Notes: generated from the sequence alone by a model not told the origin. Shown: positions 4,780 to 64,000, counted from the stretch's first letter. The stretch: 64,000 nucleotides of DNA from an uncultured Chloroflexia bacterium (GCA_963837315.1 CAWINE010000017.1:342549-406548), one strand, 5' to 3'. Numbers and translations are program-made.

Positions 4780-5007
4780 ATGAAAGAACTGGTAGAATAT
4801 CTCGCAAAGAACCTGGTGGACAAGCCGGAAGCCGTGCGTGTGCGCGAGCATCGCGGCGAATACGTTGTACGCGTTGAGCTGGCAGTCGACCCCGAAGAGA
4901 AGGGCAAAGTCATCGGGCGAGAAGGCAAGATCGCTCGCGCCATGCGTGCCCTGGTCAACGCCGCCGCCGCCCGCGAGGGCCGCCGAGGCGTGCTTGAGAT
5001 AGACTGA
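4780..5007 (+). CDS. KH-domain RNA-binding protein (YlqC/UPF0109 type)
   Basis: 75 aa with GKVIGREGKIARAMRAL. It occupies the conserved position between rpsP and rimM. Confidence 0.85.
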   Translation: MKELVEYLAKNLVDKPEAVRVREHRGEYVVRVELAVDPEEKGKVIGREGKIARAMRALVNAAAAREGRRGVLEID

Positions 5008-5008
5008 C

Positions 5009-5079
5009 GGCATTGCGGATTGCGGATTGAAACGCCACGGCGATCAATTCACGATCCGCAATCCGCAATCCGCAATGCC
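5009..5079. repeat. Hairpin of GCGGATT / AATCCGC heptamers spanning the rimM start codon
   Basis: Left arm ggcattgcggattgcggattg (5009-5029). Right arm gatccgcaatccgcaatccgcaatgcc (5053-5079). ATG 5075 lies inside the right arm. Confidence 0.85.
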
Positions 5080-5698
5080 AGAAGAGCCTGAACACCTTAT
5101 AGTCGGGCAGGTGGTCGCCCCGTTCGGGGTGAAGGGTGAGATGAAGGTCAATATCATGACCGAGTTCCCTGACCGTTTCAACAAGCTTGAAACGGTCATT
5201 CTTGCGCCTTTCGATACGATCGCCCCGGCCGATGTGCCCACAGCTTCGCTCTACCCGGTCACGGTGCGGCCCGCGCCTGTGCGGGAAGGGCAGACATTCC
5301 GACCGCCCAAAGAGCCGGTGCCGTTCACTATCGAGTCCACACATATTCACAAAGGCCAGCTTCTGCTGAAGGTCGAGGGAGTGGACGACCCGGAGAGCGT
5401 GCAGGCGCTGCGTGGGTACTGGGTGCTGGTGCCAAGAGAGCAGGCGCGTAAGCTGCCGCGTGGCGCATACTATCTCTACCAGGTGGTGGGGCTTGAGGTT
5501 TATACTACTAAAGGCGATTTTGTGGGCAAAATCGAGGATGTGATAACGTCGACGGCAAACGATGTCTATCTGGTTCGAGGGCCGGGCGTGACCGACCCTA
5601 CAGGCGAGCTGCTTGTGCCTGCCGTCAAGCAAGTCGTGCGAAAGCTCGACGTAGCGGGCGGACGCGTTGTGATAGTGCCGCCATCAGAGTGGACCTAA
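5075..5698 (+). CDS. rimM: 16S rRNA processing protein RimM
   Basis: MPEEPEHLIVGQVVAPFGVKGEMKV..., with a PRC-barrel-like C-terminus. The ORF-track start at 5027 would add residues encoded only by the heptamer repeat. Confidence 0.85.
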   Translation: MPEEPEHLIVGQVVAPFGVKGEMKVNIMTEFPDRFNKLETVILAPFDTIAPADVPTASLYPVTVRPAPVREGQTFRPPKEPVPFTIESTHIHKGQLLLKVEGVDDPESVQALRGYWVLVPREQARKLPRGAYYLYQVVGLEVYTTKGDFVGKIEDVITSTANDVYLVRGPGVTDPTGELLVPAVKQVVRKLDVAGGRVVIVPPSEWT

Positions 5699-5864: not shown

Positions 5865-6133
5865 CGTAAAACGTAAAAGACGTAACCGCCAAGACGCCAA
5901 GGTCCGCCAAGGTTCGCCAAGGTTTCTATGGGTTTAAACCATAATAATCTCTGTGACCTCTGTGGTTCAAACCCATAAAACCTTCGTGCTCTTTGTGATC
6001 TTAGTGCTCTTCGTGATTAAACCCATAAAACCTTGGTGATCTTGGTGTCTTGGTGGTTCAAACCGTACAAATCTTGGCGTCTTGGCGTTGAAAACGTCCG
6101 TCTACTGACAACTGACAACTGACAACTGACAAC
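5865..6133. repeat. Mosaic intergenic element lacking the left GTTGTCA arm
   Basis: Module order: CGTAAAA units, ccgccaagacgccaagg, ggtttctatgggtttaaaccataataa, ctctgtga units, aaacccataaaa + cttcgtg units, aaacccataaaa + cttggtg units, cttggcgtcttggcg, CTGACAA x4. Confidence 0.9.
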
Positions 6134-6150
6134 TATGTAGGAGAATTTCC

Positions 6151-10287: not shown

Positions 10288-11178
10288 ATGATCAGGGTTC
10301 CTGACGAATTTGCCGTTACGACAATAGAGAGGGAAGGGGCCGCGGGACGCGAGTGGAATCGCTCGCTGCCACACCTGGTCGAGACTTCTATGCGACCGGT
10401 GGGACCTTGTCCTGGACGGGCCGGCAATGCATGGCTATCTCAGCCTGGTAGCCCCTGTGCGCCGGGGAGACGAATTGTGTGTGCTCAAAGTTTCCTGGAT
10501 CAGCGAGGCTGATACGGGACAGGCCGCCGCCCTCTCAGCCTGGGATGGGCGAGGCGCGGTTCGGCTGCTTAAGTCGGAGCCGTCCGATGGCGCGATGTTG
10601 TTAGAGCGACTGGATTTTAGCCGGTCGTTGAGCGACGTGCCAATCGGTGATGCTCTTACTATAGCCGGTCGCTTGCTCCGCCGCCTTGCGATAGATGCCC
10701 CGGACGGATTGCGTACTCTGCCTGCCTGGGCACCGATATTTCCTGTGGCCTGCCCGAGCGCTGGGAGCGATACGGTCGCCCGATGCCACGGCGTTGGCTC
10801 GACCATGCCCAGGAGCTGGCAATCCAGCTTGGAGGGGAGTGCGAAGCCAAGCTGCTGGTCAACTACGATCTTCATTATGGCAATGTGCTTGCGAGTTGGA
10901 GAGAGCCGTGGCTGGTTGTGGACCCGATGGTAGTGGTTGGCGATCTTGAGTTCGGTATCGCGCAACTCCTCTGGCGGCGGCTGGAAGATATCGAGGCTCA
11001 AGGCGGCCTGGACCGTTATTTCCGCGTTTTGACCGAGGCAGCCGCGCTGGAACCCGCTCTCGCCCGCGACTGGACGCTGGTGCGCTGCGTGGATTACTGG
11101 CTTTGGGGTCTGAGCGTCGGCCTCACTTATGACCCAGCCCGGTGCGAGCGAATCATCGAATGGCTTACTGCAGCTTGA
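10288..11178 (+). pseudogene. Aminoglycoside/streptomycin 6-phosphotransferase-like kinase, split over three frames
   Basis: ORFs 10288-10512, 10427-10933 and 10783-11178 together give an APH-type protein (AVRLLKSEPSDGAMLLERL..., LVNYDLHYGNVL, WLVVDPMVVVGDLEFG). Frame goes +1 near 10383, then -1 somewhere between ~10690 and 10790. Confidence 0.75.
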
Positions 11179-11193
11179 GGTGGCATGCCCGAG

Positions 11194-11381
11194 TGGATTA
11201 CGGTAACTCACCGCAGAGGCGCAGAGGGTACGCAGAGACGCAGAGTTACGCAGAGATTATTGTGGTTTGTGGATTACGGTACCTCATCACAGAGGCGCAG
11301 AGAATGTTATTGTTTCATTACTCTAAAAACTTAAATTACTCTCTGCGTAACTCTGCGTACTCTGCGCCTCTGCGGTGAGTT
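11194..11381. repeat. Large palindromic element built on CGCAGAG units, with partly duplicated left arm
   Basis: taactcaccgcagaggcgcagagggtacgcagagacgcagagttacgcagag ... ctctgcgtaactctgcgtactctgcgcctctgcggtgagtta. A second copy lies at 14546-14669. Confidence 0.9.
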
Positions 11382-11509
11382 ATGGTCGTACTGGTTTGCG
11401 ATGTGGGAATCACTGCAGATAAATATCTTGACAGAGCAGCTATCCTTCCGGTTATTATTTAGAAGTATTCTAAATAAATATCCACACGAAATAGATAGAG
11501 GTTCTAATT

Positions 11510-11990
11510 ATGGCCGGACATTTTCCTCTTACACTGACCGAAGACGACCTGATCGCCCATTTGCGCGATGCCGGGCTAAGGGTGACGCCGCAGCGGCTGG
11601 TGATTTACGAGACGCTGGTCAAGGACAAGCACCACCCGACGGCTCAGAACTCTTTTCGAGCGTCTCCAGAGCGTCCTTCCTTCGCTCAGCCAGGCGACTG
11701 TCTACAACACCCTTGAGACCATGGTGGAGATGGGCCTGGTGCGCGAGCTTGGCACCGCCGGCGATGGCACAGTGCGCTACGATGCCGATGTCAGTCCACA
11801 CGCTCACCTGGTATGCACAGGCTGCAATTCGATCGAGGACTTCGCGGCTGTGGAAGTGCCTGTTCCCCCCTTTTCCGTCTTTGAAGAGAGGGGTTACACG
11901 ATACGCTCCGTGGGAGTCTATTACTACGGACTTTGCCGGGATTGCTATAAGCAGCAAAAGTCCCATGAAGGAGGGCGCGCCGGTGAGTAA
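11510..11990 (+). pseudogene. Fur-family metalloregulator (Fur/PerR/Zur type) with one frameshift
   Basis: LRDAGLRVTPQRLVIYETLVKDKHHPTA, then after a frame change LFERLQSVLPSLSQATVYNTLETMVEMGLVREL...HAHLVCTGCNSIEDF. The shift is at the T4 run near 11650. With T3 the frame is continuous. Confidence 0.8.
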
Positions 11991-14622
11991 CTCTCCACTC
12001 AACGCCCCCCACGGAACTGCTGCCGGCATTGTCCAGGCTCCCGCTTCCGAGGCCAGGGATACGGCCTGTGTTGATTTGCTGCGCGAGGCCACGGACGACA
12101 AACCGGGTATCGTCAACGTCAACCTGGATACGCAGAACAAAGTAATGTCCTTCGGATATATGCCTGAGCTTGTTGCTCAGCCCGACCTGGACAAAATCGC
12201 TCAGGAGCTTGCGCCGACCCTTCACCAGAGGATGGAGACCTGCACCCTACGCGTGGGGCACGTGGGTGGGCGCGCCTGCAAATCTTGCGCGCTCGGCCTT
12301 GAGAGGCGTATGAGCCGCGTTCCGGGCGTGCGGCACGCCTCCGCCAGCTATCTGGGAGGCGTACTGAGCGTCACATACGACGGCGCGCTCCTTTCACCCG
12401 GCGCAATTGCCGATCGAGTAAAAGAATACGGAGTGCCTCTGTTACCGGCGTCAGTTGACGAAGAGGATGCCGCACAGCCGCGCACGCTGCGGGCGCGCCT
12501 GCAAAGCCGGCTCACGACCGACAACCTGGCCGTAGTGCTCACAGTGATTACTCTCGTGTCGATGCTGTTGGCGTTAGGCATCGAAAAGATCGTGGGTGCC
12601 TCGGGCGAGGATGTAGCCACAGGCCTGTACGCGGTGGCTTATGTAGCGGGCGGCAGCTTCGCGCTGAGGAAAGGCGTCGAGGCGTTGTTGCACGGCGTCA
12701 TCGATATTGACTTGCTGATGGTGCTGGCGGCGCTGGGCGCGGCCTTTGTAGGGTCCTTTCTTGAGGGGGCAGTGCTGCTCTTCCTCTTCTCGTTCTCCAA
12801 CGTTTTGCAGGCTTACGCCATCGACAGGACGCGCAATGCCATCAGGGCGCTGATGAAACTGCGGCCCAAGCAGGCGTCGGTGCGACGCGGCGATACCACT
12901 GTTGTGTTGCCTATCGAGCGCGTGATGGTGGGCGACTGCATCGTCGTGAAGCCGGGGGACCGCGTGGCGCTGGACGGCATGGTGTCGGCAGGCGAGAGCA
13001 CCGTCGACCAATCCTCCATCACAGGCGAGTCGATGCCCGTGAGCAAGTGCCTGGGCGACACAGTATTCGCGGGCACCATCAACAAGAACGGCAGCCTCGA
13101 CGTAACGGTGAGCAAGCTGGCGAAGGACTCGACGTTAGCGCAGCTCATCAAAATGGTGGAGGAGGCACAGAGCGAGAAAGCCCAGACCCAGCGCTTCATA
13201 GACCGGTTCGAGCAGTTTTACGCGGTGGCTGTGATCCTGATAACCGCGCTGGCGATTGTGGTGCCGATATTCATCTTTGCCGAGGTATTCCATTCGGCCT
13301 TCTATCGCGCCATGACGATCATGGTGGCAATGTCTCCCTGCGCGCTTGTGATCAGCACGCCCGCCTCGATCCTATCAGGAATCGCCAACGGAGCGCGCCG
13401 TGGCGTGCTGTTCAAGGGAGGCGTCCACCTGGAACAGGCTGCCCTCATCAAAGTAGTTGCGTTCGACAAGACCGGCACCCTGACTGAGGGCAAGCCGAAG
13501 GTGACCGATGTGGTGGTGCTGGCGGCGGACGAAGGACGAAAGACGAAGGACGAAGGACGAACCACGGCCGACGAAAGCGAGATACCTTCGTCCTTCGTCC
13601 TTCGTCCTTCGTCGGTCGACCGCCCTTCGCCCATCCTCACAGCGAGCGACCTTCTTGCCCTGGCTGCCGCTGTGCAGAGTAAATCCGAGCACGCTCTGGC
13701 GCGGGCCACCTTGGCGGCGGCGGCTGAGCATGATACGCAGGTGTCTGAGGCATTCGCCTTCCAGGCGACTACGGGCAAGGGCGTTCGCGGCCTTGTGGAT
13801 GGTCGGGATATCAGGATAGGTAACCTGCGATATTACGAAGGGTTCAAGTGCATAGGAAGGGAAGAGGCCGAGTGCGAGGTGCTGCGGCTGGAGCACGAGG
13901 GCAAGACCAGCGTGATTGTGGGCGAACTGGGCGACGACGGCGAGACCGCCACCATGCTCGGCGTAATTGCGTTCGCAGACCTGTTGCGGCCCGAGGTGGC
14001 AAGCATCGTGCGCGCCATCAAGGCGGCGGGAGTTGAGCACGTAGTGATGCTAACAGGCGACAACCGCCACGCAGCCGAAGCCATCGCACGGCAGGCAGGA
14101 TTGGACGATTTCTACGCCGAGCTGCTGCCTGAGGACAAGGTGAGGGTAGTCAGAGAGATCGGTGAAAAGTATGGCCCCGTGGCGATGGTGGGTGACGGTG
14201 TGAACGATGCGCCCGCCCTGGCGACCGCCCGCCTGGGCATCGCGATGGGCGCGGCGGGCACCGACGTAGCTCTCGAGACAGCCGATGTGGTGCTAATGGG
14301 TGACGACTTGCGCCAGATCCCGTACCTGATCGCCCTCAGCAAGCAGACCCGTCGCACCCTCGTGACCAACATCGGCTTTGCGATGTTCATGATCTTCCTG
14401 ATGCTGTTGGGGATATTCGCGATACAGCTGCCCCTACCTGCGGCCGTAGTGGGCCACGAAGGGGGCACAGTGCTGGTGTCTCTCAACGGCCTGCGCCTTC
14501 TTGGGTATAAATACCGCCCATCAGAAAGCAATTACTGGGACGACCGTAACTCACCGCAGAGGCGCAGAGGACGCAGAGTTACGCAGAGATTTCTTTGGTT
14601 TTGTTACTCCTGCAAACATTAA
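11965..14622 (+). CDS. P1B-type heavy-metal translocating ATPase, SPC / HEGGT signature (P1B-4-like)
   Basis: DKTGTLT, TGES, GDGVNDAP, TM motif AMSPCALV, HEGGTVLVSLNG, and an N-terminal HMA-like CKSC. Start chosen at ATG 11965, because the ORF-track start at 11401 overlaps the fur gene. The last ~20 aa and the stop lie in the CGCAGAG element. Confidence 0.9.
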   Translation: MKEGAPVSNSPLNAPHGTAAGIVQAPASEARDTACVDLLREATDDKPGIVNVNLDTQNKVMSFGYMPELVAQPDLDKIAQELAPTLHQRMETCTLRVGHVGGRACKSCALGLERRMSRVPGVRHASASYLGGVLSVTYDGALLSPGAIADRVKEYGVPLLPASVDEEDAAQPRTLRARLQSRLTTDNLAVVLTVITLVSMLLALGIEKIVGASGEDVATGLYAVAYVAGGSFALRKGVEALLHGVIDIDLLMVLAALGAAFVGSFLEGAVLLFLFSFSNVLQAYAIDRTRNAIRALMKLRPKQASVRRGDTTVVLPIERVMVGDCIVVKPGDRVALDGMVSAGESTVDQSSITGESMPVSKCLGDTVFAGTINKNGSLDVTVSKLAKDSTLAQLIKMVEEAQSEKAQTQRFIDRFEQFYAVAVILITALAIVVPIFIFAEVFHSAFYRAMTIMVAMSPCALVISTPASILSGIANGARRGVLFKGGVHLEQAALIKVVAFDKTGTLTEGKPKVTDVVVLAADEGRKTKDEGRTTADESEIPSSFVLRPSSVDRPSPILTASDLLALAAAVQSKSEHALARATLAAAAEHDTQVSEAFAFQATTGKGVRGLVDGRDIRIGNLRYYEGFKCIGREEAECEVLRLEHEGKTSVIVGELGDDGETATMLGVIAFADLLRPEVASIVRAIKAAGVEHVVMLTGDNRHAAEAIARQAGLDDFYAELLPEDKVRVVREIGEKYGPVAMVGDGVNDAPALATARLGIAMGAAGTDVALETADVVLMGDDLRQIPYLIALSKQTRRTLVTNIGFAMFMIFLMLLGIFAIQLPLPAAVVGHEGGTVLVSLNGLRLLGYKYRPSESNYWDDRNSPQRRRGRRVTQRFLWFCYSCKH
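13528..13613. repeat. GACGAAG-heptamer hairpin element inserted in frame inside the ATPase coding sequence
   Basis: Left arm is gacgaag x5 (13528-13562). Right arm is cttcgtc x4 (13586-13613). It translates as DEGRKTKDEGRTTADESEIPSSFVLRPSSV, between the KPKVTDVVVL and SDLLALAAAVQSKSEH blocks of the nucleotide-binding domain. Confidence 0.85.
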
Positions 14623-14669
14623 ATAATCTCTGCGAAACTCTGCGTACTCTGTGCCTCTGCGGTGAGTTA
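14546..14669. repeat. Second copy of the CGCAGAG palindromic element
   Basis: gtaactcaccgcagaggcgcagaggacgcagagttacgcagag ... ctctgcgaaactctgcgtactctgtgcctctgcggtgagtta. It contains the ATPase stop codon. Confidence 0.9.
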
Positions 14670-14689
14670 AACGTAATCACCGTAAGCTA

Positions 14690-15916
14690 TTACTCTGGAA
14701 GTAACGCCTGGATAACATGTCCCAGGCGCTTTATCGCTTCTTCTATCTCCACCACGCTCAAAAGGCTGTAGCTGAGGCGGATGTAGGTGCCTGGCAGGGC
14801 GGGAGGCTGCGCGAAGCATGACTCGCCGGGGAGGTATTCGACGCCTTCTTCGCGGGCCAGCGCGGCCAGCTTGTGAGGGTCGACGGTAGGTGGGAGCTTA
14901 ACCCAGACGAAGAAGCCGCCTGACGGGCGGGTCCATTCGACACCGGGCGGGAAATATCGGTCGAGGGCCGCCAGTGCGGCATCACGCTTGGCGCGGTAGG
15001 CGTCGACCAGAGTAGCGATGTGCCGCGTGAGCACGCCGTCACGAGCATATTCGACTGCGACATACTGGGAGAATGGCACCGTGCCTCCTTCTTCTTTGAG
15101 AAGGAGCATTTTCCGGATAATATCGGGTTGCGCGATGGCCCAACCTAGGCGCATACCGGGTGTCAGTATCTTCGAGAAGGTGCTCGTGCGTATCACGCGG
15201 TTTTCACGGTCAAGAGCGTAGAGTGAAGTGGGCAAGGGGCCGTTGTCTGCGTCGTAATAAAGCTCGCGGTATGGATCGTCCTCGATTATGACGAGGTTGT
15301 AGCGGCGAGCCAGGGCTAAGAGAGCCACGCGCGAGGCTTCGGGTATGGTCAGCCCGCTGGGGTTCTGGAAAGTAGGGATTGTATAAAGGATTTTGGGCCG
15401 GACGCCGCGCAAGTGCAGCGAATCGAGCAGGGTTTCGGTAGCGGCAACGTCTATCCCCTCGCGGCCCATAGGCAGGTTGACCAGGTCGCCCCCCGCCCGC
15501 TTCAAGACGCTGAGCGCGCCTGGAAACGATGGTGCTTCAACCAGCACCACGTCGCCTTCGTCGATCAACGAGCGTGTGGCAAGTCCGATGGCAGCCGACG
15601 CGCCGTTGGTGATTACGATATTCTCCGGCGTAACGTGGATGCCTTCCTCACGCTCCAGCTTTTCAGCCACCAGCGCCAGCAATTCAGGCTGGCCCCGCAC
15701 CAGGCCATATTGGAGCGCGACGGCGGCCCTTGCAGGGTCGGAAAGGACGCGGGAAGCCGCCGCCGCGATCTCCTGCGCAGGGAAGAGAGCCGGGTCGGGG
15801 TTGCCGTACGCCATCGAGAAAGGTGCGCGCACCCCGCCAACGAACCACGCTTCGCCCCCGTCCGCGACATGCCGCGACCATTCGGGTGTGAAGAGGTTTT
15901 CGTACGTGATGTTCAT
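14690..15916 (-). CDS. PLP-dependent aminotransferase, class I/II
   Basis: 408 aa with TFSKILTPGMRLGW (PLP lysine), TNGASAAI and IIEDDPYREL. Confidence 0.85.
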   Translation of the reverse strand: MNITYENLFTPEWSRHVADGGEAWFVGGVRAPFSMAYGNPDPALFPAQEIAAAASRVLSDPARAAVALQYGLVRGQPELLALVAEKLEREEGIHVTPENIVITNGASAAIGLATRSLIDEGDVVLVEAPSFPGALSVLKRAGGDLVNLPMGREGIDVAATETLLDSLHLRGVRPKILYTIPTFQNPSGLTIPEASRVALLALARRYNLVIIEDDPYRELYYDADNGPLPTSLYALDRENRVIRTSTFSKILTPGMRLGWAIAQPDIIRKMLLLKEEGGTVPFSQYVAVEYARDGVLTRHIATLVDAYRAKRDAALAALDRYFPPGVEWTRPSGGFFVWVKLPPTVDPHKLAALAREEGVEYLPGESCFAQPPALPGTYIRLSYSLLSVVEIEEAIKRLGHVIQALLPE

Positions 15917-20633: not shown

Positions 20634-20813
20634 GTTTTCACCGCCAAGACGCCAAGGTCAGCAAAGGTTCGCCAAGATACCTATTGGATTTAATCGATAT
20701 GATCCGATGATTCCAACCCGATAAAACCTTCGTGATCTTCGTGATCTTCGTGAATTCAAAACAATAAAAACCTTGGCGTCTTGGCGGTTAAGGTAATCCG
20801 CAATCCGCCAATC
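20634..20813. repeat. Degenerate or short copy of the mosaic element
   Basis: caccgccaagacgccaagg ... aaaaccttcgtgatcttcgtgatcttcgtga ... aaaaaccttggcgtcttggcgg, followed by aatccgcaatccgccaatcc. Confidence 0.75.
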
Positions 20814-30379: not shown

Positions 30380-30747
30380 GTTGTCAGTTGTCAGCAGACG
30401 GGCGATGGACGATGGACGACCGTCAGTGTAAAACGTAAGAGGTAAAACGTGAAACGTAACCGCCAAGACGCCAAGTTCCGCCAAGGGCCGCCAAGGTTTC
30501 TATCGTTTTAACCATAATAACCTCTGTGATCTCTGTGTTCTCCGTGCGCTCTGTGATTTAAACCCATAATAACCTTCGTGGTCTTCGTGACCTTCGTGAT
30601 CTTCGTGTTAAAACCCATAGAAACCTTCGTGATCTTTGTGTCTTTGTGGTTCAAACCGTAAAAACCTTGGCGTCTTGGCGTTGAAAAATACCGTCGCCGG
30701 TCGTCTACTGACAATAGTTCGCTTCGCTCATCAACTGACAACTGACA
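30380..30747. repeat. Mosaic intergenic element, full-length reference copy
   Basis: All modules are present in order, from GTTGTCA x2 to CTGACAA x2 (see the first finding). It fills the whole gap between two genes. Confidence 0.9.
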
Positions 30748-32382: not shown

Positions 32383-32665
32383 GTTGTCAGTTGTCAGTTG
32401 ACCGGCGACCGAGGACGAAACGTAAAACGTAAAACGTAAGACGTAACCGCCAAGACGCAAGAACCTCTAAGGTCGCCAAGGCTTCTATGTGTTCTAGACC
32501 AACAAATCCTCTGTGATCTCTGTGGTCTGTGTAATTCAACCATAATAACTTCGTGATCTTCGTGATCTTCGTGATCTTCGTGATTAAAAAGCCGATAGCT
32601 GATAACTACCGTCTACTGACAAATAGTGCGCTTCGCTCATCAACTGACAACCTGGTCCGACAACT
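32383..32665. repeat. Mosaic intergenic element, intermediate-length copy
   Basis: gttgtca x2, cgtaaaa x3, ccgccaagacg, ctctgtgatctctgtgg, cttcgtgat x4, ccgtctactgacaaatagtgcgcttcgctcatcaactgacaac. Confidence 0.9.
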
Positions 32666-39689: not shown

Positions 39690-39760
39690 ATAGGTAACTG
39701 CTGCTACTGCTGCTACTGCTTACTACGTTTTACGTTTTACGTTTTACGTTTTGCGCGTTC
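39690..39760. repeat. CTGCTAC and ACGTTTT tandem arrays overlapping the 3' end of the epimerase gene
   Basis: ctgctgctactgctgctactgcttactacgttttacgttttacgttttacgttttgcg. On the minus strand it encodes ...NAQNVKRKT and the TAA stop. Confidence 0.85.
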
Positions 39761-46296: not shown

Positions 46297-46583
46297 GTTG
46301 TCAGTTGTCAGTAGAACAGTAACCGCCAAGACGCCAAGTTCCGCCAAGGTCGCCAAGGTTTTCATTGTTTAAGCCCATCAAATCCATAAGCGAAGTAGTT
46401 CGCTCATCTCTGATCTACTGTGCACTCTCTACTCATGAGAAGGGTGCCCTCTGGGCTGCGAGCTCTGATTCAAACCCATAAAAACCTTCGTGATCTTCGT
46501 GCTCTTCGTGCTCTTCGTGATTTAAAACCTGATAGCTGATAGCCGATAAGCTACCTGACAACTGACAACTGACAACTGACAAC
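46297..46583. repeat. Mosaic intergenic element with a divergent ~100-nt central insert
   Basis: gttgtca x2, ccgccaagacgccaag..., unique centre 46375-46470, aaacccataaaaaccttcgtgat units, gatagctgatagcc, ctgacaa x4. Confidence 0.85.
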
Positions 46584-46629
46584 TTGGTCATACGAACTAA
46601 GGCCAGGACAAACTAGGCCAAAAGACCGA

Positions 46630-49192: not shown

Positions 49193-49230
49193 GACGAAGG
49201 ACGAAGGCAGAAATGCCTTCGTCCTTCGTC
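49193..49230. terminator. GACGAAG-unit hairpin after the MFS gene
   Basis: gacgaaggacgaaggc-agaaat-gccttcgtccttcgtc. Confidence 0.7.
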
Positions 49231-49315: not shown

Positions 49316-50978
49316 GTGAAGAAAGTATTTAGCAGGGTTATGATACTTGGCGTCTTTCTCTTGACAATTGTTGGCGGTCCAGGGTTTGCATTCGCGCAAT
49401 CACAAACGGACACGCGCTTTTTCTCCGTGACACAACAATCTGTTTCAGGTCGCTTCCTTGAATATTGGAATGAAAACGGCGGGCTATTGCAGCAAGGCTA
49501 TCCGATCTCTCCTGTGCTGGAAGATCAATCAGCTATAGATGGCAAGACATATACTGTGCAGTATTTCGAGCGGGCCGTCTTCGAGATGCACCCGGAAAAC
49601 CCTCGGCCATACGACGTTGAGCTTGCGCTGCTCGGTGTGCTGGCATACCGGCAGAAATATCCCGATGGCGCGCCCAACCAGGTTCCTAATACAGACCCGG
49701 GATCTGTCTCGTATCCTGCAACGGGCAAGCGGTTGGGCGGCTCTTTCCTGGTCTACTTCAACCAGCATGGCGGCGTAGCCCAGCAAGGCCTGCCTATCTC
49801 CGACGAGTTCCAGGAGAAAAGCAGCCTCGACGGCAAGGTGCGCACCGTCCAGTATTTTGAGCGCGCAGTCTTCGAGTGGAATCCATCCGAACCAGCCTCC
49901 CTACAACGTTCTGCTGAGCCAGCTCGGCACATTCGCTTACAAAGCAAGGCAAACGCCTGCGCCTGCGCCTGTTCCCCCTCTGCCCACTACGATTGTCCCG
50001 CCGCCGGTAGGGGGCAAGGACCAGTACGCGCCCATCGGCAATGACCGGTACCTTGTATGGTCAGAGGGCGAATTGAAGTCCAGCGGCGGAGGCATAGTAA
50101 ACACCTTCGATATACGCGCCCTCGATCTGCGCACAAATAACGTGATCACCGTTACAGATGCACAGGGCGACCAGGGAGACCAGGTCCTCGACGGCAACAT
50201 GGTCGCATGGGGAAGCTATGACACCAGTTGTGCGGGCTGCCAATCTTCTGCATCGGGCGTTTACGCGAAGAACCTTGCGACAGGCCAGGAGTATACGGTA
50301 GCCACAGGCTTTGTGCCTCAAGGAACCATCGGCATATCCGGCAGAAAAGTCGCATGGCTGGAAGGTGGCGCGGCAGGTCAGCAGCTAAAGGTGAAGGACC
50401 TCGACAGCAATGAGATTACGCTGGTGCGAGAGGTCGCCACTGAAGAACCATATCTCACAAACGTACAGATGAGCGGCAACAATCTAATCTGGAGCGAGAT
50501 CGCCTATAACAATACCAAAGGGGACAGCAAGGTGTCGTACATAAAGGCCTACGACCTCAAAACAGGCCAAACACACGACGCGTATTCCTACGTGCTCGAC
50601 CCGAAGGGCTCCCTGCCCAACGTCGCATTGAGCGGCGACAGACTTGTTGTGCAAGACAGCGAGGGCAATGTCTTTGTCAAAGACCTGCCGAGTAACGATT
50701 CGTTCGAGCTTGCTTACAAAGGACTGATGAACAATCTTGTAGTTCAGGGCGATCTCATCCTGTTCAGCAGCAGCCCCGCCCATGCGGATATCAATGGCAT
50801 CAATCTGAAAAGGGCCAACACTGTAGTGCCAATAATCAACTCGGTTCCGGGCAGCTTCAGCCAGTACGAGTTCACGGTGGCCGGCGGCAGACTGGTGTAC
50901 GTGGACGCCAATGGCAACCCCTCAAGGCAAGATCGCCCCCGGTTAGTAGTGCGCGAGCTTCCGGACGCGCTAAAGTAG
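49316..50978 (+). pseudogene. Secreted protein: two LGFP-like repeats plus beta-propeller-like domain, 1-nt insertion; paralog of 51107-52777
   Basis: GTG 49316 (VKKVFSRVMILGVFLL...). ORFs 49043-50044 and 49857-50978. The paralog reads gagtggaatccgtccaaccagccg, whereas this gene has gagtggaatccatccGaaccagcct, with the extra G at ~49889. Confidence 0.8.
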
Positions 50979-50996: not shown

Positions 50997-51032
50997 GGAA
51001 GGACGAAGGTAGTTGGCCTTCGTCCTTCGTCC
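50997..51032. terminator. GACGAAG-unit hairpin between the paralogs
   Basis: ggaaggacgaagg-tagtt-ggccttcgtccttcgtcc. Confidence 0.65.
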
Positions 51033-51106
51033 TCGCCACCGCATTTCTTAGGTTATACTATCAGCCGGTAGCTAAAGCACCCCAAAACTCGGCATGGAGA
51101 ACAACG

Positions 51107-52777
51107 GTGAAGAAGATATTCAGCAGGGTTATGATACTTGGCGTCCTTCTCTCGACAATTGTTGGCGGTCCAGGGTTTACATTTGCGCAATCACAAACGG
51201 GCACGCGCTATTTCCCTGAGACACAGCAATCTATCTCGGGCCGCTTTCTTGAATATTGGACCCAGAATGGCGGGCTGATGCAGCAGGGGTACCCGATCTC
51301 GCCTGAGATGCAGGAGCTATACCCTACAGACGGCAAAACCTACACGGTGCAATACTTCGAACGCTCCATCTTTGAGATGCACCCCGAGAACCAGAGACCT
51401 TACGATGTGCTTCTCGGGCTACTTGGCGTACTGGCATATCGCCAGAACTACCCGCACGGCGCTCCCAACCAGATTCCGAACAACGACCCTGGCTCAGTTC
51501 TATTCAAAGAGACGGGCAAGCGGGTAGGCGGCTCCTTCCTGGCTTACTTCAACGCTCATGGCGGCATAATGCAGCAAGGTCTCCCAATTTCGGACGAGTT
51601 TCAGGAGACGAGCGCTCTCGATGGCACCATGCACACGGTCCAGTACTTCGAGCGAGCCGTGTTCGAGTGGAATCCGTCCAACCAGCCGCCTTATAACGTC
51701 CTTCTGAGCCAGCTTGGCACATTCGCCTACAAGGCGAAATATAGCGCACCGCCGCAGGAGCAACCTATACTCGAGCCGGTGCTCCCGGCGCCCTCCAATT
51801 CCAGAAAGGCCCAGGTTGGCCCGCAAGCATCGAGCGACTATCTCGTCTGGTACGAAGGATTGCAGACAGGCCCGGCCGACAGGGGAAACTACACAGACCT
51901 CGATATCATGGCGCTCGATTTGCACACGAATAAGCCTGTAACCGTCACAACTGCCTCTCAGAACCAGACAGAGGCCAGCATAGATGGCTCGCTCGTGGCC
52001 TGGCGCGACGAGAGCATCGGTTGTGCTGAGTGCTCTCCGCCGGGATTGTACGCGAAAGACCTGGCCACAGGCATGGACTACGATATTTCCAGGGCGACGG
52101 GGAGCTCGTTTCCTCAGAACCCTGTGGTCGCGGGTAGAACCGTCGCATGGCTGGAAGTGAGCGACAACGCGCAGATTATCAAAGCCAAGAACGTGGACAC
52201 AGGCAACACGACAGAGGTGAAAGATTTGATTGGCAACACGTCTCAAATCACCGGCCTGGCGGGACAAGGACGGTTTCTGGTCTGGTGCGAGGTTGACTAC
52301 GATCATTCGCAGACTTCCACTCCGGTGCCAGGCTATCCATACACTCTTGAAGCCTACGACCTGGCAACAGGCAACCAATATCAGGAGCTCACAGCCTATC
52401 TAAGCAGCGGCCCGGACTTCGCGCTCCCTTCCTATTCGCTGAGCGGCACCCGGCTTGCTGTGAGCATGAAATCCAAAAACTCATTCTTGATTAACCTCTC
52501 TACAGGCACAAGCATTGAGCTACCATATACCGGCACTATGCAAAACCTCACCCTTTACGGTGATAAGCTCCTCTTCAGCACAAGCATCGATGCTTCGGAC
52601 CTTTATGGCATCGATCTCTCGTCCCCCGACCTGAAAGCTGTTCCACTGCTCCAGACCCCTCCGAACACCCCCCCGCAGGATGCCCCGAGATACCAGGCCG
52701 CCGTGGTAGGGGATTGGCTCGTCTGGGACAATGCAAAAGACCCGCAGTCCAGGCTAAGCCATAAGAAGCTGGATTAA
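51107..52777 (+). CDS. Secreted protein: two LGFP-like repeats plus beta-propeller-like domain (intact paralog)
   Basis: Signal peptide MKKIFSRVMILGVLLSTIVGGPGFTFA. FLEYWTQNGGLMQQGYPIS..VQYFERSIFEMHPE and FLAYFNAHGGIMQQGLPIS..VQYFERAVFEWNP. Then recurrent ..LVW/..VAW blade-like segments. Confidence 0.8.
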   Translation: MKKIFSRVMILGVLLSTIVGGPGFTFAQSQTGTRYFPETQQSISGRFLEYWTQNGGLMQQGYPISPEMQELYPTDGKTYTVQYFERSIFEMHPENQRPYDVLLGLLGVLAYRQNYPHGAPNQIPNNDPGSVLFKETGKRVGGSFLAYFNAHGGIMQQGLPISDEFQETSALDGTMHTVQYFERAVFEWNPSNQPPYNVLLSQLGTFAYKAKYSAPPQEQPILEPVLPAPSNSRKAQVGPQASSDYLVWYEGLQTGPADRGNYTDLDIMALDLHTNKPVTVTTASQNQTEASIDGSLVAWRDESIGCAECSPPGLYAKDLATGMDYDISRATGSSFPQNPVVAGRTVAWLEVSDNAQIIKAKNVDTGNTTEVKDLIGNTSQITGLAGQGRFLVWCEVDYDHSQTSTPVPGYPYTLEAYDLATGNQYQELTAYLSSGPDFALPSYSLSGTRLAVSMKSKNSFLINLSTGTSIELPYTGTMQNLTLYGDKLLFSTSIDASDLYGIDLSSPDLKAVPLLQTPPNTPPQDAPRYQAAVVGDWLVWDNAKDPQSRLSHKKLD

Positions 52778-52778
52778 A

Positions 52779-52838
52779 CGGACGAAGGACGAAAGACGAA
52801 GGACGAAGGCTAACCTTCGTCTTTCGTCTTTCGTCCGT
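52779..52838. terminator. GACGAAG-unit hairpin between convergent genes
   Basis: acggacgaaggacgaaagacgaaggacgaagg-ctaa-ccttcgtctttcgtctttcgtccgt. Confidence 0.75.
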
Positions 52839-53479
52839 CAAAACGCCGTGAACTCAGGCTTGCCCCGGCAGGCGTCGAAATCACCCGTGGCGCGGGCGAC
52901 CTGCTTGTAGGCCGGCTGAAGCATGATAGCGTCTTTGAGATGGGCAGAGGCGAGGTCGCAGCGGCCCATCATGGCGTTGATGCGTGCCAGGTTGAAGTGG
53001 GCTTCGGCGTACTGAGGCTTGATATCTATGGCGCGGCTGAAGTCTATGGTGGCACCCACCAGATCGCCCATTTGCGCCAGCACTGCCGCGCGAGTGTTGT
53101 ATGGCTCCGGCTGGTTGGGGTTTAGCTCGATGCAGCGGGTGAGGTCGGCGAAAGCTTCCTCCCACCGGCCCATCATGGCGTAGATATTGCCCCTGTTATT
53201 GAGGATATCGGCGTCCTCTCCCCGCAATTCGAGGGCATGCGTGAAATCTTGTACAGCCGCCTCATAGGCGCTGTCTGTGGCGTAGACAATGCCGCGATTG
53301 TATAGATAGCCCGGGTTCTTCGGGTCAAGCTCGATAGCCTTCGTAAAAGAGGCTATCGCCTGCTGAGGCATATTCTGGGTGGCCTGTGTTATGCCGAGTG
53401 TGTTGTAGCGGTTGGCCTCCCCAGCGCTCGAAAGCCCACCATCTTCTGTGCCCGGCTCTGCGGGCTGCTTTTCATCCAT
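52838..53479 (-). CDS. TPR-repeat protein
   Basis: At least five 34-aa TPR units (AIASFTKAIELDPKNPGYLYNRG..., AVQDFTHALEL...). Confidence 0.85.
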   Translation of the reverse strand: MDEKQPAEPGTEDGGLSSAGEANRYNTLGITQATQNMPQQAIASFTKAIELDPKNPGYLYNRGIVYATDSAYEAAVQDFTHALELRGEDADILNNRGNIYAMMGRWEEAFADLTRCIELNPNQPEPYNTRAAVLAQMGDLVGATIDFSRAIDIKPQYAEAHFNLARINAMMGRCDLASAHLKDAIMLQPAYKQVARATGDFDACRGKPEFTAF

Positions 53480-58056: not shown

Positions 58057-58132
58057 GTGGCTGTAGCTCAGTGGATAGAGCGTTGGGTTGCGGACCCAAA
58101 GGTCGGGGGTTCGAGCCCCTCCAGCCACGCCA
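58057..58132 (+). tRNA. tRNA-Arg, anticodon GCG, CCA encoded
   Basis: Manual cloverleaf: GTGGCTG-TA-GCTC AGTGGATA GAGC-G-TTGGG TTGCGGA CCCAA-AGGTC-GGGGG TTCGAGC CCCTC-CAGCCAC-G-CCA. Confidence 0.8.
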
Positions 58133-58172
58133 CACGAGCCGACCTAAAAGGTTGGCCCTTTTTTTAGCAAGT

Positions 58173-58258
58173 GGAGAGGTCGCATAGTGGCCTAGTGCGC
58201 TCGTCTCGAAAACGAGTGGGTCTGAAAAGCCCCGTGGGTTCGAATCCCACCCTCTCCG
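58173..58258 (+). tRNA. tRNA-Ser, anticodon CGA (long variable arm)
   Basis: GGAGAGG-TC-GCAT AGTGGCCTA GTGC-G-CTCGT CTCGAAA ACGAG-variable arm-GTGGG TTCGAAT CCCAC-CCTCTCC-G. Confidence 0.85.
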
Positions 58259-58261
58259 CCC

Positions 58262-58348
58262 AAACGAATGCGGAATGTGGAATTCGGAATGCGGAATAGC
58301 ATTTCCGTTCCACATATCAATTCCGAACTCCGCATTCCACATTCCGCA
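58262..58348. repeat. GAATGYG-unit hairpin in the spacer between the two tRNA-Ser genes
   Basis: cgaatgcggaatgtggaattcggaatgcggaat-agcatttccgttccacatatc-aattccgaactccgcattccacattccg. Confidence 0.85.
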
Positions 58349-58352
58349 ATGT

Positions 58353-58440
58353 GGAGAGGTCGCCTAGAGGCCTAGGGCGCTCGCCTGGAAAGCGGGTACG
58401 GGGAAACTCGTCGTGGGTTCGAATCCCACCCTCTCCGCCA
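58353..58440 (+). tRNA. tRNA-Ser, anticodon GGA, CCA encoded
   Basis: GGAGAGG-TC-GCCT AGAGGCCTA GGGC-G-CTCGC CTGGAAA GCGGG-variable arm-GTGGG TTCGAAT CCCAC-CCTCTCC-G-CCA. Confidence 0.85.
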
Positions 58441-61195: not shown

Positions 61196-61462
61196 AGTCG
61201 TGCTAGATGGGGAACTAGCGGTGCCCTGTAACCCGCAAACCGCTCCAGCGGGGTTGAATTCCCTTTCGAGGTCCGACATTGTGGGACTGCGTCTGTTAAG
61301 CGGTGTTGACGATTGGGTCCTGCGCGGCGAAAGCCTACGAAATTGGTCAGGTCTGGAAGGAAGCAGCCATAAGTAGTCCCTTTCGGGTGCCGCAGGGTCG
61401 CCTGATTCGAGCTGGCTGGCAGCCGTAAGCCGGAATGCCGTATCGGAAAAGGGTGCACGACG
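61196..61462 (+). ncRNA. ffs: Signal recognition particle RNA, large Bacillus-type with Alu domain
   Basis: 5' gtcgtgctagatggggaactagcggtgccctgtaacccgc parallels the Alu-domain start of B. subtilis scRNA. Domain IV is ggtcaggtctggaaggaagcagccataag...gtgccgcagggtcgcctga. The 5' gtcgtgc pairs with the 3' gcacgac. Confidence 0.85.
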
Positions 61463-62265: not shown

Positions 62266-62694
62266 ATGGAGAACAGCCAATATTCAAGTGAATACTCCGC
62301 GGGTGGGGTGGTCTACAGGCACAACGGCGCGCAAAGCGAAGTCGCCCTGATCTACCGCAATCGCCACGACGATTGGTCCCTTCCCAAGGGGCATATCGAG
62401 GCGGGCGAAAGTCGAGAGCAGGCAGCCCTCCGCGAAATAAAAGAAGAGACCGGCCTCGACGTTAGCATAGTGCGCCCGCTCGGAGAAGCCGTCTACTTCT
62501 TCAGAAAGAGGGGCGGCGATCTTGTTCGCAAGACCGTCTACCATTACCTAATGGAAGCTCTCACCACCGAGCTTGGCAAGCCTAACTGGGAAGTGACCGA
62601 AGCCCGCTGGGTCCCCATCACTGAGGCCCGGAGCTTGCTAAGCTATGAAAAAGATCGCGAGATGATAGGCAAGGCAATTGATGTTTTACGATAG
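62266..62694 (+). CDS. NUDIX hydrolase
   Basis: [28 protein letters not shown] Nudix box. Confidence 0.9.
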
Positions 62695-64000
62695 CGCAAA
62701 AATCTGGGTGAAAGCCGGTAACGGCGGCGACGGAAGCGCCTCGTTTCGGCGCGAGAAGTTTATACCGAAAGGCGGGCCGGACGGCGGGGACGGTGGGCGC
62801 GGCGGCAGCGTCTATCTACGCGTCAACCCCGACCTGAACACGCTCCTGACTTTCCACTACCAGCAGCATTTCAAGGCGCAGCACGGCGGTGCAGGAGCGT
62901 CCAACCAGAAGCATGGCAAGGCGGCTCCCGACCTCTATATCGATGTGCCGCCAGGCACTTTTGTAGAGATTCTGGACGAAAAGCCGCTATCAGGTGCTGC
63001 CGCCGAGATCGTACAGGCCGACCTCGTGCGCCCGGGCGACACGCTAATGGTGGCGCGGGCCGGGCGAGGCGGGCTGGGCAACACCCATTTCAAAACCTCT
63101 ACCCAGCAGGCCCCCAGGTTCGCCGAGAAAGGCGAGCCTGGACAAGAGCGCACAATAGTGATGGAGCTGAAGGTGATAGCCGACGTGGGCATCGTGGGCT
63201 ACCCCAACGTGGGCAAGTCCACCCTGCTGTCGGTGGTAAGCGCGGCTCAGCCCAAAATCGCCGATTACCCCTTCACCACCCTCCAGCCTATGCTGGGCGT
63301 GGTCAGCGTAGACGACTATACGTTCGTGATGGCCGACATTCCAGGCCTGATCGAAGGGGCCAGCGGCGGTGCCGGCCTTGGCCTCGAATTCCTGCGCCAC
63401 GTCGAACGGACTCGCCTCCTCGTACACATGGTAGATGGCTCGGCAGGATTGTGGAATCCCGAATGGGGAGTCCAGGAGGAAGAGAACGACAGATGCAGAC
63501 CAATCCGCAATCCGCAATCCGCAATCCGCAATCGAATCATCCTGCGCAGACCACCGACCCCATTGCCGATTTCAAGCGCATCAACGCGGAGCTGGAGCAG
63601 TACGACTCCGAGCTTGCAGCCAAGCCGCAGGTTATCGCCATCAACAAAGTAGATTTGCAGGAAGTGCGAGACCGCCTGCCGTCGCTCATCAAGCAGTTCC
63701 ACGACCTGGGCTATGACGAGGTTTACCCCATCTCGGCAGCTACGGGCCAGGGAGTGCAAGAGCTGATGGGCGTGGTCGCCGCGAAATTACGCGAGCTGCC
63801 GAAGCCTGCATGGCAAGAAGAGCCGGAAGAAGTTTCTGCAGAAGATGTTATCGTGAAGCCGCGCCATATCGCATCCGAGTCTCGAGCGGTTCGAGATCGT
63901 GCGCGAAGGTAAGCACCACTTCCGCGTGGTCGGCGACAGAGTGGAGCGAATGGTCACAATGACCGATATGAGCAACCCGTTCGCCCTCGACCGGATGCAG
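62681..64000 (+). pseudogene. obg: GTPase Obg/CgtA, interrupted by a repeat insertion and two frame changes; 3' end beyond the window
   Basis: N-terminus [46 protein letters not shown], then G-domain [24 protein letters not shown] (frame A). [38 protein letters not shown] is in frame A-1 (ORF 63451-63912). The OCT domain ERFEIVREGKHHFRVVGDRVERMVTMTD is back in frame A from ~63884. Confidence 0.85.
63443..63555. repeat. AATCCGC-heptamer element inserted inside obg
   Basis: ~113 nt lie between ...HMVDGS and DPIADF. The core is aatccgc x4 at 63502-63529, preceded by a degenerate complementary arm ggattgtggaatcccgaatgggg. The length is not a multiple of 3. Confidence 0.8.

Follow-up and report, generated by a model that had tools for sequence, protein, structure and literature searches.

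In a 64,000-nucleotide (nt) stretch of DNA from an uncultured Chloroflexia bacterium (GCA_963837315.1, CAWINE010000017.1:342549-406548), the gene of a P1B-4 type heavy-metal ATPase (11983..14622, plus strand) was found to carry a repeat hairpin in frame inside its nucleotide-binding domain (N-domain). The whole stretch is called the window hereafter, and positions are counted from its first letter. The hairpin is built of the 7-nt unit GACGAAG and its complement, lengthens the protein by 34 codons relative to a syntenic ortholog that lacks it, and leaves the reading frame open. Most likely it is a translated passenger that the pump tolerates, neutral or mildly costly, and not a functional module. 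We found that the same loop in related pumps, and loops in other conserved proteins, were filled by tandem heptamers of the same or of different sequence.

Sequence and Folding of the Hairpin

Read directly from the sequence, the left arm of the hairpin (13528..13562, plus strand) consists of the units GACGAAG, GACGAAA, GACGAAG, GACGAAG, and GACGAAC in this order, which translate as DEGRKTKDEGRT. It is followed by a loop (13563..13584, plus strand) of two degenerate units, CACGGCC and GACGAAA, and then GCGAGATA, and by a right arm (13585..13613, plus strand) in which CCTTCGT is repeated 4.1 times, 100% perfect with 0 mismatches, and which translates as PSSFVLRPSS. An earlier note on this DNA had described a GACGAAG x5 / CTTCGTC x4 hairpin at 13528-13613; the hairpin is there, but two units of its left arm, out of five, deviate from GACGAAG. 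Outward pairing of GGCGG with CCGCC stretches the whole palindrome to about 13521..13631 (plus strand), and the stem inside the open reading frame (ORF) is ~35 bp long. The minimum free energy of the RNA was −68.5 kcal/mol, against −43.1 ± 4.0 kcal/mol for dinucleotide shuffles (z = −6.4), and none of 200 shuffles was as stable; DNA folding parameters gave z = −6.35. Moreover, the 14-mer GACGAAGGACGAAG, which spans two units, occurred 16 times in the 64-kb window with at most one mismatch, where 0.01 occurrences were expected.

The ORF is open from 11401 to 14622, straight through the hairpin, and the translation that the earlier note had given for this part (...KPKVTDVVVLAADEGRKTKDEGRTTADESEIPSSFVLRPSSVDRPSPILTASDLLALAAAVQSKSEHALA) was exact. 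In every frame GACGAAG translates without a stop as DEGRRTK, and its complement as LRPSSFV. The absence of stop codons, to which the earlier note had drawn attention, therefore holds in all frames, but 50% of the possible heptamers likewise lack stops on both strands, so that the property is permissive and not special. The frame stays open because the unit is stop-free on both strands, the hairpin loop contains no stop, and the net addition is 102 nt. No Rfam family was found at or near the hairpin, the only matches in the window being a signal recognition particle (SRP) RNA and three tRNAs elsewhere. When 11000-15000 was scanned for intrinsic terminators, none was found at the hairpin, the counts did not rise above those of shuffled sequence, and no U tract of terminator type was seen 3′ of the stem.

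The ATPase and the Place of the Insert

The host gene encodes a conserved P1B-ATPase, as had been supposed, and can be assigned to the P1B-4 type. P1B-4 pumps are defined by SPC in M4 and HEGxT in M6 (Gronberg et al., PMC8880997). Here, SPC (SPCALVISTP) in M4 and HEGGT (GHEGGTVLV) in M6 are invariant among homologs, DKTGT, TGES, and GDGVNDAP are invariant across the protein alignment, and the closest solved relative is the P1B-4 pump sCoaT 7QBZ (phmmer 6.8e-129, Foldseek 1.7e-45). The top Foldseek matches to the structure model are P1B-ATPases, and Pfam recognizes E1-E2_ATPase (2e-51) and Hydrolase (1e-35). A public protein of 879 aa (P0001) is 100% identical and starts at 11983, with an alternative ATG at 11965; the part of the ORF that extends upstream to 11401 is read-through of the fur region. 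A weak HMA match (2.1e-05) and a CKSC motif lie at the N terminus, so that the pump departs from the P1B-4 trait of having no classical N-terminal metal-binding domain, which is typical but not universal. Because some P1B-4 pumps with extended N termini may carry such domains (PMC8880997), the HMA match does not exclude P1B-4 membership.

The gene was compared with four orthologs drawn from metagenome contigs (L001, L002, L004, and L006; 79-82% identity), all of which share with the window the order FemAB, NYN, Fur, ATPase, convergent aminotransferase, and HEAT. The Nei-Gojobori ratio of nonsynonymous to synonymous divergence (dN/dS) was 0.08-0.11 in every pair, including those of the window against the four orthologs; the ATPase gene is thus under purifying selection, with dN/dS of about 0.1. 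All catalytic residues that are invariant in the family are kept, and the pump is probably functional, as far as its sequence can tell. The named relatives of the ATPase are metagenome-assembled genomes (MAGs) of Chloroflexota, Anaerolineae, or Ardenticatenaceae, none of them cyanobacterial. Among the matches listed for representative genomes there was no close relative, the best being 58% identical.

The ortholog L002 (protein P0003, 79-81% identical, with Fur-ATPase-aminotransferase synteny) delimits the insert. It reads VIV-APSAS-LTKDEL where the window reads VVL-AADEG...RPSPI-LTASDL, a segment of 5 residues against ~38. Because the segment is missing from this ortholog, the window ATPase is a net 34 codons longer, and protein and DNA alignments place the ~102 extra nt at ~13525-13626 (plus strand). 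The phmmer alignment with 7QBZ splits at the same site (query 511 to 552 against chain 385 to 390), where the solved pump has ~4 residues. From DKTGTLT to SEH there are 66 aa in the window, and 38 of 120 homologs have the minimum of 31-32 aa. In an AlphaFold2 model based on a 76-sequence alignment (mean predicted local distance difference test [pLDDT] 82, predicted TM-score 0.73), residues 519-544 (nt 13537-13614) are coil with pLDDT <50, and they are flanked by a strand (506-512) and a helix (554-565) with pLDDT >90. The model supports a position in the loop of the nucleotide-binding domain that leads from its first strand to its first helix, before the SEHxL helix, and the predicted coil together with the gap in 7QBZ points to a surface loop. 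Both the alignment, in which the insert is extra relative to the orthologs and to 7QBZ, and the low-confidence coil of the model agree with the insertion into an N-domain surface loop that the earlier note had proposed. At this position, homologs from elsewhere carry segments of variable length and different sequence, and not one of equivalent length and similar sequence, which the earlier note had named as grounds for refutation. TKDEGR and TTADESEIPSSFVLR are predicted tryptic peptides within the insert.

History of the Site among Orthologs

The hairpin is full in one of the orthologs, reduced in two, and absent in the fourth. At the same codon position, L001, an independent contig from the Joint Genome Institute (JGI), has GACGAAG x4, an unrelated loop of 23 nt, and CTTCGTC x4, in frame. 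In L004, about four degenerate units of the left arm are present, together with what remains of the distal right arm; L006 has a single GACGAAGG unit, and L002 has no repeat. In a neighbour-joining tree, L002 falls outside the clade of the window, L001, L004, and L006 (92% bootstrap), within which L001 groups with L004 and L006 (68%). The most economical reading of this tree is that the hairpin was gained once and then decayed in the L004/L006 line. In L004, the remnant ends on the right in a sequence (CGTCGCTGGACC) similar to the distal right arm of the window (CGTCGGTCGACC), which suggests that a former hairpin was deleted there.

The window and L001 have a synonymous divergence (dS) of ~1.0 and a third-position identity of 56%. 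The arms are 92-100% perfect in both, and the loops share nothing. Because the arms are near perfect despite a dS of ~1.0, some process regenerates or selects the arrays. Heptamer arrays occur at ~5 per 10 kb in the window and are present near the ATPase gene in L001, while none was found in 10 kb of L002 and only degenerate ones in L004, although these samples are small.

A second GACGAAG array, consisting of a left arm only and adding 11 residues, was observed at 5017-5035 of L006 and in the homologous part of L004. It occupies a different loop of the N-domain, flanked by GKTGVVVGQV and IVRLLGVIAFAD, and amounts to GACGAAG x2.7 in L006. The native sequence of the window at this loop is GGCGACGACGGCGAG, one mismatch from the GACGAAG unit, which suggests seeding by microhomology.

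Recurrence in Other Pumps and Proteins

In the same loop, other P1B-ATPases of Chloroflexota carry other repeats: AAGGTTGAAGGTTCT x3 with a complementary arm (L088), AAGGTTG units (L089), and AAAATCC x3 together with a 26-nt direct repeat (L087). A CopA-type ATPase from a Thermoflexus sp. MAG (L051, 373-2031) has an ATTTTGG/AAATCCA hairpin (…DFGFWILDSKDKNEIQNPKSKIQN…) in frame in the homologous N-domain loop, and a second in-frame hairpin, GAAAATT/AATTTTC, in a P-domain loop before VAMVGDGINDAP. Judged by these sequences, the N-domain loop is a recurrent hot spot and not the site of a unique event.

Metagenome contigs were scanned for pairs of GACGAAG units followed, after a gap of 4-34 nt, by two units of the complement. 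At least 120 contigs contained such hairpins, and 31 of the 122 hairpins among the matches listed were flanked on both sides by a stop-free stretch of at least 60 codons. Ten of these 31 were tested, and six ORFs with seven hairpins were confirmed by Pfam, with domains flanking the hairpin on both sides or spanning it: two adenylation domains of nonribosomal peptide synthetases (NRPS), Mfd, HemW, MoeA, and a DUF4147/MOFRL protein (glycerate-kinase-like) with two hairpins. Other candidates were dropped as intragenic cases, L091, L115, and L112 for want of Pfam support, L195 because its domain lay only far from the hairpin, and L106 because its hairpin was upstream of the start of a thymidylate kinase gene.

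The HemW case (L111, hairpin 11142-11200) was followed through its best 120 homologs (P0121-P0240), whose named members are Chloroflexi or Anaerolineae; like those of the ATPase, the named relatives are Chloroflexota/Anaerolineae MAGs. The loop YEISNWA...C(R/Q)HNLVYW has a minimum of 8-9 residues and a maximum of 82 in this set. In most of these homologs, it is filled with peptide of 7-residue period derived from many heptamer units, such as QTANGKW, RISESAN/IRHSPFA, QSAIRNP, and PSAISHQ, of which QSAIRNP corresponds to the same unit as that in the obg gene of the window. Since the unit is 7 nt long, an array is read in all three frames and gives a peptide with a period of 7 residues; this periodicity is a signature of translated heptamer arrays.

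The 105 distinct GACGAAG hairpins among the matches listed had loops of 7-34 nt, copy numbers of 2-15, and flanks that all differed, and there is therefore no master copy. Variant units were mirrored in the other arm in 28 cases, differed between two variant arms in 3, and were one-sided in 44. Mirroring was far above chance, so that either pairing was selected or one arm was copied from the other.

Distribution of Heptamer Arrays in the Window

In the window (57.7% G+C), 31 exact arrays with a period of 7-9 were counted, 26 of them of period 7; they belong to 10 unit families or more and are often paired as complements or arranged as nested sets. Although ORFs make up 82% of the window, 28 of the 31 arrays are located outside any ORF or at an ORF edge; deep inside genes there are only the ATPase pair and a single array in obg. 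The commonest units, GACAACT, AATTACG, AAAACGT, and AAATTAG, have a stop on at least one strand, and the intragenic units GACGAAG and CAATCCG have none on either strand, which fits a filter by stop codons.

The GACGAAG unit itself forms three more hairpins in the window. They are intergenic and short-looped, and each lies directly 3′ of a stop codon or between convergent ORFs: a GACGAAG/CTTCGTC hairpin at 49193..49230, 20 nt after the stop codon of a major facilitator superfamily (MFS) transporter gene; another of this kind at 50998..51034, after an ORF that ends at 50978; and a GACGAAG/GACGAAA hairpin at 52780..52835, between the convergent ORFs 51107-52777 (plus strand) and 52838-53479 (minus strand, a tetratricopeptide repeat [TPR] gene). 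All three had been reported before, and only the position 50997 needs correction, since that copy begins near 50998.

Origin of the Hairpin

We propose that the source of the insert was a genome-wide class of hairpins with tandem 7-nt stems, which in this genome normally lie close to genes but not in them, mainly past a stop codon or where two genes converge. One such hairpin would have been installed in the codons of the solvent-exposed loop that joins the first β-strand of the N-domain to the SEHxL helix. Translation would yield ~34 extra residues, first the acidic and basic DEGR(K/R)TK and then the Ser/Pro-rich PSSFVLR, and these residues would be disordered, as a loop on the surface, and would not disturb the catalytic core. 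The loop of this ATPase is probably a permissive sink, which repeats have occupied many times in related pumps. As to the arrays themselves, we can offer a guess: they might arise by replication slippage, and the mirrored arm by template switching or copying, with ongoing homogenization. Translation of the insert, activity of the pump, and a near-neutral effect are inferences.

Several points weigh against a tolerated passenger. Near neutrality fits poorly with intact arms at a dS of ~1.0, because neutral inherited sequence should decay, as that of L004 did. The translation and the function of a pump bearing the insert are putative. An RNA stem of ~35 bp inside an ORF is a plausible site of RNase III cleavage or ribosome pausing, and a cost or a regulatory effect is possible. 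The tree is also compatible with repeated gains at a seed. Finally, frameshifts in fur and obg, which may be assembly indels, put the exact copy numbers of hairpins in doubt and make the unit counts of the ATPase hairpin less certain.

A wider reading, which we advance tentatively, is that Chloroflexota, at least Anaerolineae-like lineages and Thermoflexus, harbour an active process that makes and homogenizes tandem-heptamer hairpins, and that these routinely colonize permissive loops of conserved proteins as a major lineage-specific source of disordered segments. So far, such hairpins were seen in P1B-ATPases (in one and the same loop, across three lineages or more and in two paralog classes), HemW, Mfd, NRPS adenylation domains, MoeA, and Obg. 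If this were true, the near-perfect arms at a dS of ~1 and the mirrored variants would call for a dedicated mechanism, such as arm copying or gene conversion between loci, and not simple decay.

A rather unlikely but serious alternative is that the hairpin grew in place. A chance GACGAAG-like seed in a variable linker would have been extended by slippage, and the complementary arm added by template switching, so that locally a genome-wide mutational bias and not a mobile element would be at work. The orthologs are graded accordingly, from the single GACGAAGG unit of L006 through about four degenerate units in L004 to the full hairpins of L001 and the window, and the second N-domain loop has GACGAAG x2.7 in L006 where the window has its native GGCGACGACGGCGAG. 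Growth in place also fits the lack of a master copy among the 105 hairpins, the lack of an evident target-site duplication (at the two ends of the GACGAAG copy in this ATPase, none is visible), and the density of heptamer arrays in the window and L001 compared with the L002 and L004 loci, where they are rare or degenerate. However, the tree, with L001 joined to L004 and L006 (68%) and this group to the window (92%), favours one ancestral hairpin with decay over two growths, and the end of the L004 remnant, CGTCGCTGGACC, so like the CGTCGGTCGACC of the window, suggests that a former hairpin was deleted.

It is improbable that the hairpin is kept for a function, either of the RNA (as an RNase III target, a pause for folding of the P- and N-domains, or an attenuator) or of the protein (as a charged disordered loop, a modulator of the N-domain, or a site for binding a partner). 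[quoted passage not shown] Copying from arm to arm, however, predicts mirrored variants equally well, and the stem has no terminator-like U tract. An intact hairpin is missing in L002, L004, and L006, where the left arm of L004 has decayed and L006 keeps one unit, and other lineages have unrelated sequence or nothing in the ATPase loop. Moreover, GACGAAG hairpins also occur in unrelated proteins and the class is mostly intergenic, which argues against a role specific to the pump.

A decaying pseudogene with a hairpin in its middle and a replaced C terminus is very unlikely. There are indeed two different repeat elements in the ORF, at 13528-13613 and 14547-14669, and the upstream fur gene appears frameshifted; but the 879 codons contain neither a stop nor a frameshift, every invariant residue of the family is present, dN/dS is ~0.1 in all pairs including the window, and both additions lie in predicted disordered regions outside the folded core. 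That the hairpin or its in-frame state is an artefact of a chimeric assembly or a miscounted repeat is barely credible, even though fur is split near 11650, obg shifts frame across its heptamer array and again near 63880, and errors in heptamer copy number move the frame by one base, because the independent JGI assembly L001 has a hairpin of the same kind in frame at the same position, remnants are kept in L004 and L006, at least 120 metagenome contigs have GACGAAG hairpins, several in frame in other genes, and the open frame resumes its homology directly after the insert.

Comparison with Known Repeat Systems

The earlier note had likened the insert to the Rickettsia palindromic elements (RPEs). 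These elements (Ogata et al. 2000, as reviewed in PMC2229807 and PMC3733652) have been reported from 19 ORFs; a guanylate kinase bearing one was active with altered substrate affinity, and the insert has been read as neutral or slightly detrimental (PMC2229807). The analogy of function stands, since in both cases a palindromic repeat occurs in intergenic regions and in frame at tolerated sites of conserved genes (PMC2229807, PMC3733652), but the hairpin is not a member of the RPE family. RPEs form families of 105-146 bp that share a conserved consensus and have terminal inverted repeats, and are restricted to Rickettsia, whereas the window element has periodic 7-nt stems, variable copy number, unrelated loops, no consensus beyond the unit, and a Chloroflexota host. 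In addition, the unit that fills one and the same protein loop varies from lineage to lineage, unlike in RPEs. The element thus behaves like an RPE but is not one.

Outside Rickettsia, in-frame palindromic repeats have been documented as intragenic repetitive extragenic palindromes (REPs) in several phyla (Di Nocera et al. 2013, PMC3733652). These are often dimers that encode 20-30 residues, sometimes twice in one gene (PMC3733652). Like the GTAG- and CGTC-tagged REPs, the heptamer hairpins are mostly extragenic stem-loops, some of which lie in coding regions of known proteins (PMC3733652), and the complement of GACGAAG contains CGTC, as in CGTC-tagged REPs. REPs, however, have a fixed consensus, loops of 4-5 nt, and a short tail, and the GTAG types are linked to REP-associated tyrosine transposases (RAYTs), while hairpins of the window type have periodic stems, loops of 7-34 nt, 2-15 copies, and no fixed ends. 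Membership in the CGTC-type REPs was rejected on account of the variable loops and periodic stems. No Y1 transposase was found among 21 window ORFs scanned against Pfam, a scan that included no search aimed at RAYT.

Tandem heptamer repeats that favour intergenic sites near stop codons have been described from cyanobacteria, as short tandemly repeated repetitive (STRR) sequences, and from Xanthomonas and Beggiatoaceae (PMC4692102, PMC4679880). They share with the present arrays the tandem 7-nt units, the several families per genome, the intergenic bias, and a position often within ~50 bp of stops, and the commonest family of the window, CAACTGA/GACAACT, is one base from a reported unit, TAACTGA. 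But they are direct arrays, formers of G-quadruplexes or 5′-UTR arrays, under-represented in coding regions; in these papers they are not described as complementary hairpin pairs translated in conserved proteins (PMC4692102, PMC4679880), and by their original definition STRR have a cyanobacterial host. A cyanobacterial source of the window, to which the STRR-like arrays had pointed, was rejected because all close homologs of the ATPase and of HemW that bear a name come from Chloroflexota/Anaerolineae.

Borg tandem repeats are reported to be direct repeats of an archaeal extrachromosomal element that create new disordered regions (PMC9879509). The window arrays resemble them in being perfect, fast-evolving tandem repeats of independent origins that form in-frame disordered segments, and differ in being inverted hairpin pairs of a 7-nt unit. 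There is also a likeness to MITEs that bear ORFs (the 107-bp form of Correia, ERIC, and YPAL), of which stop-free forms are fused to ORFs and stop-containing forms are intergenic (PMC2229807). The GACGAAG hairpin, however, has neither terminal inverted repeats distinct from its periodic stem nor a constant length. Searches of the literature brought up no account of heptamer hairpins from Chloroflexota, Thermoflexus, or Anaerolineae, which is weak evidence given the limited coverage of subscription journals.

In-frame palindromic repeats in protein genes are best known from Rickettsia and from scattered REPs; here an element of another structure, a hairpin with stems of tandem 7-nt arrays, has led to the same outcome in a free-living phylum. 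The outcome is repeatable, for the same ATPase loop and the HemW loop have been filled many times by different units, and the filled loops provide a natural map of sites where conserved enzymes tolerate 20-80 extra disordered residues. The hairpins are a tractable case for studying the origin and upkeep of perfect heptamer arrays and the cost of a 35-bp stem in an ORF. Gene callers and homology tools will meet low-complexity inserts such as DEGRRTK, LRPSSFV, IQNPKSK, and QSAIRNP. Loci with heptamers are also prone to false pseudogene calls, because an error in copy number shifts the frame, and the obg gene of the window is a possible example.

Other Features of the Window

A second intragenic hairpin (63446..63545, plus strand) lies in the gene of the essential GTPase Obg (62678-64000) and consists of CAATCCG x4.7 and a degenerate complementary left arm. 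The array (63501-63533) and the left arm (~63446-63480) fall between the motifs VDGSAG and DPIADF. The frame of obg changes across the array, with 107 nt intervening, and one extra base or unit would restore it; a second change (63875-63885, VIVKPRHI / SLERFEIVREGKHHF) is away from any repeat. These changes could be assembly indels, signs of a pseudogene, or recoding. The fur gene (~11510-11990) is likewise in two frames, with a break near 11650 that separates residues 1-47 from 49-159, while the orthologs are intact at 158-159 aa; the break is probably due to one extra A in CAGAACT.

The fur-ATPase pair is bracketed by two palindromic elements of a CGCAGAG type, one upstream of fur (11204..11382, plus strand) and a sister copy at 14547..14669 (plus strand), both with perfect 23-nt terminal inverted repeats TAACTCACCGCAGAGGCGCAGAG, by which the latter is MITE-like. 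Of the ~30 codons by which the ATPase is extended at its C terminus (…NSPQRRRGRRVTQRFLWFCYSCKH), the last ~25 come from the left arm and loop of the copy at 14547..14669, as does the stop codon; this copy takes the place of the native gene end. Ortholog ATPases end 4-5 residues past YK(Y/F)RP, and AlphaFold2 gives pLDDT <50 for residues 850-879. The orthologs have ordinary hairpins at the 3′ end of the ATPase gene, and that of L002 looks like a terminator. In another gene, an ORF at 4955-5632 (minus strand) that has no Pfam match, ATTGCGG/ATCCGCA (arrays 5012-5076) lies within the last 40 codons, and a TACGTTT array (39724-39752) extends over the stop codon of a gene for an epimerase. Repeat-derived C-terminal tails may thus be common in this genome.

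Between the NYN gene and fur, where orthologous loci have a short spacer, an ORF of 131 aa (10783-11178) matches only the C-terminal half of APH_6_hur (aminoglycoside/hydroxyurea resistance kinase) and is probably a gene fragment. Dispersed 9-nt units, CTTCGTGAT / CTCTGTGAT and CGCCAAGG, were observed at 5895-6134, 30469-30747, 32509-32584, 46324-46584, and 20728-20753. This family also forms higher-order repeats of 41-42 nt (5990-6085 and 30583-30668), nested between GACAACT/ACTGACA heptamer arms in complex composite intergenic structures. An SRP RNA of the bacterial large type lies at 61198-61460. The three tRNA genes are clustered at 58057-58437, and a GAATGCG x4.6 array (58266-58297) lies between the second and the third.

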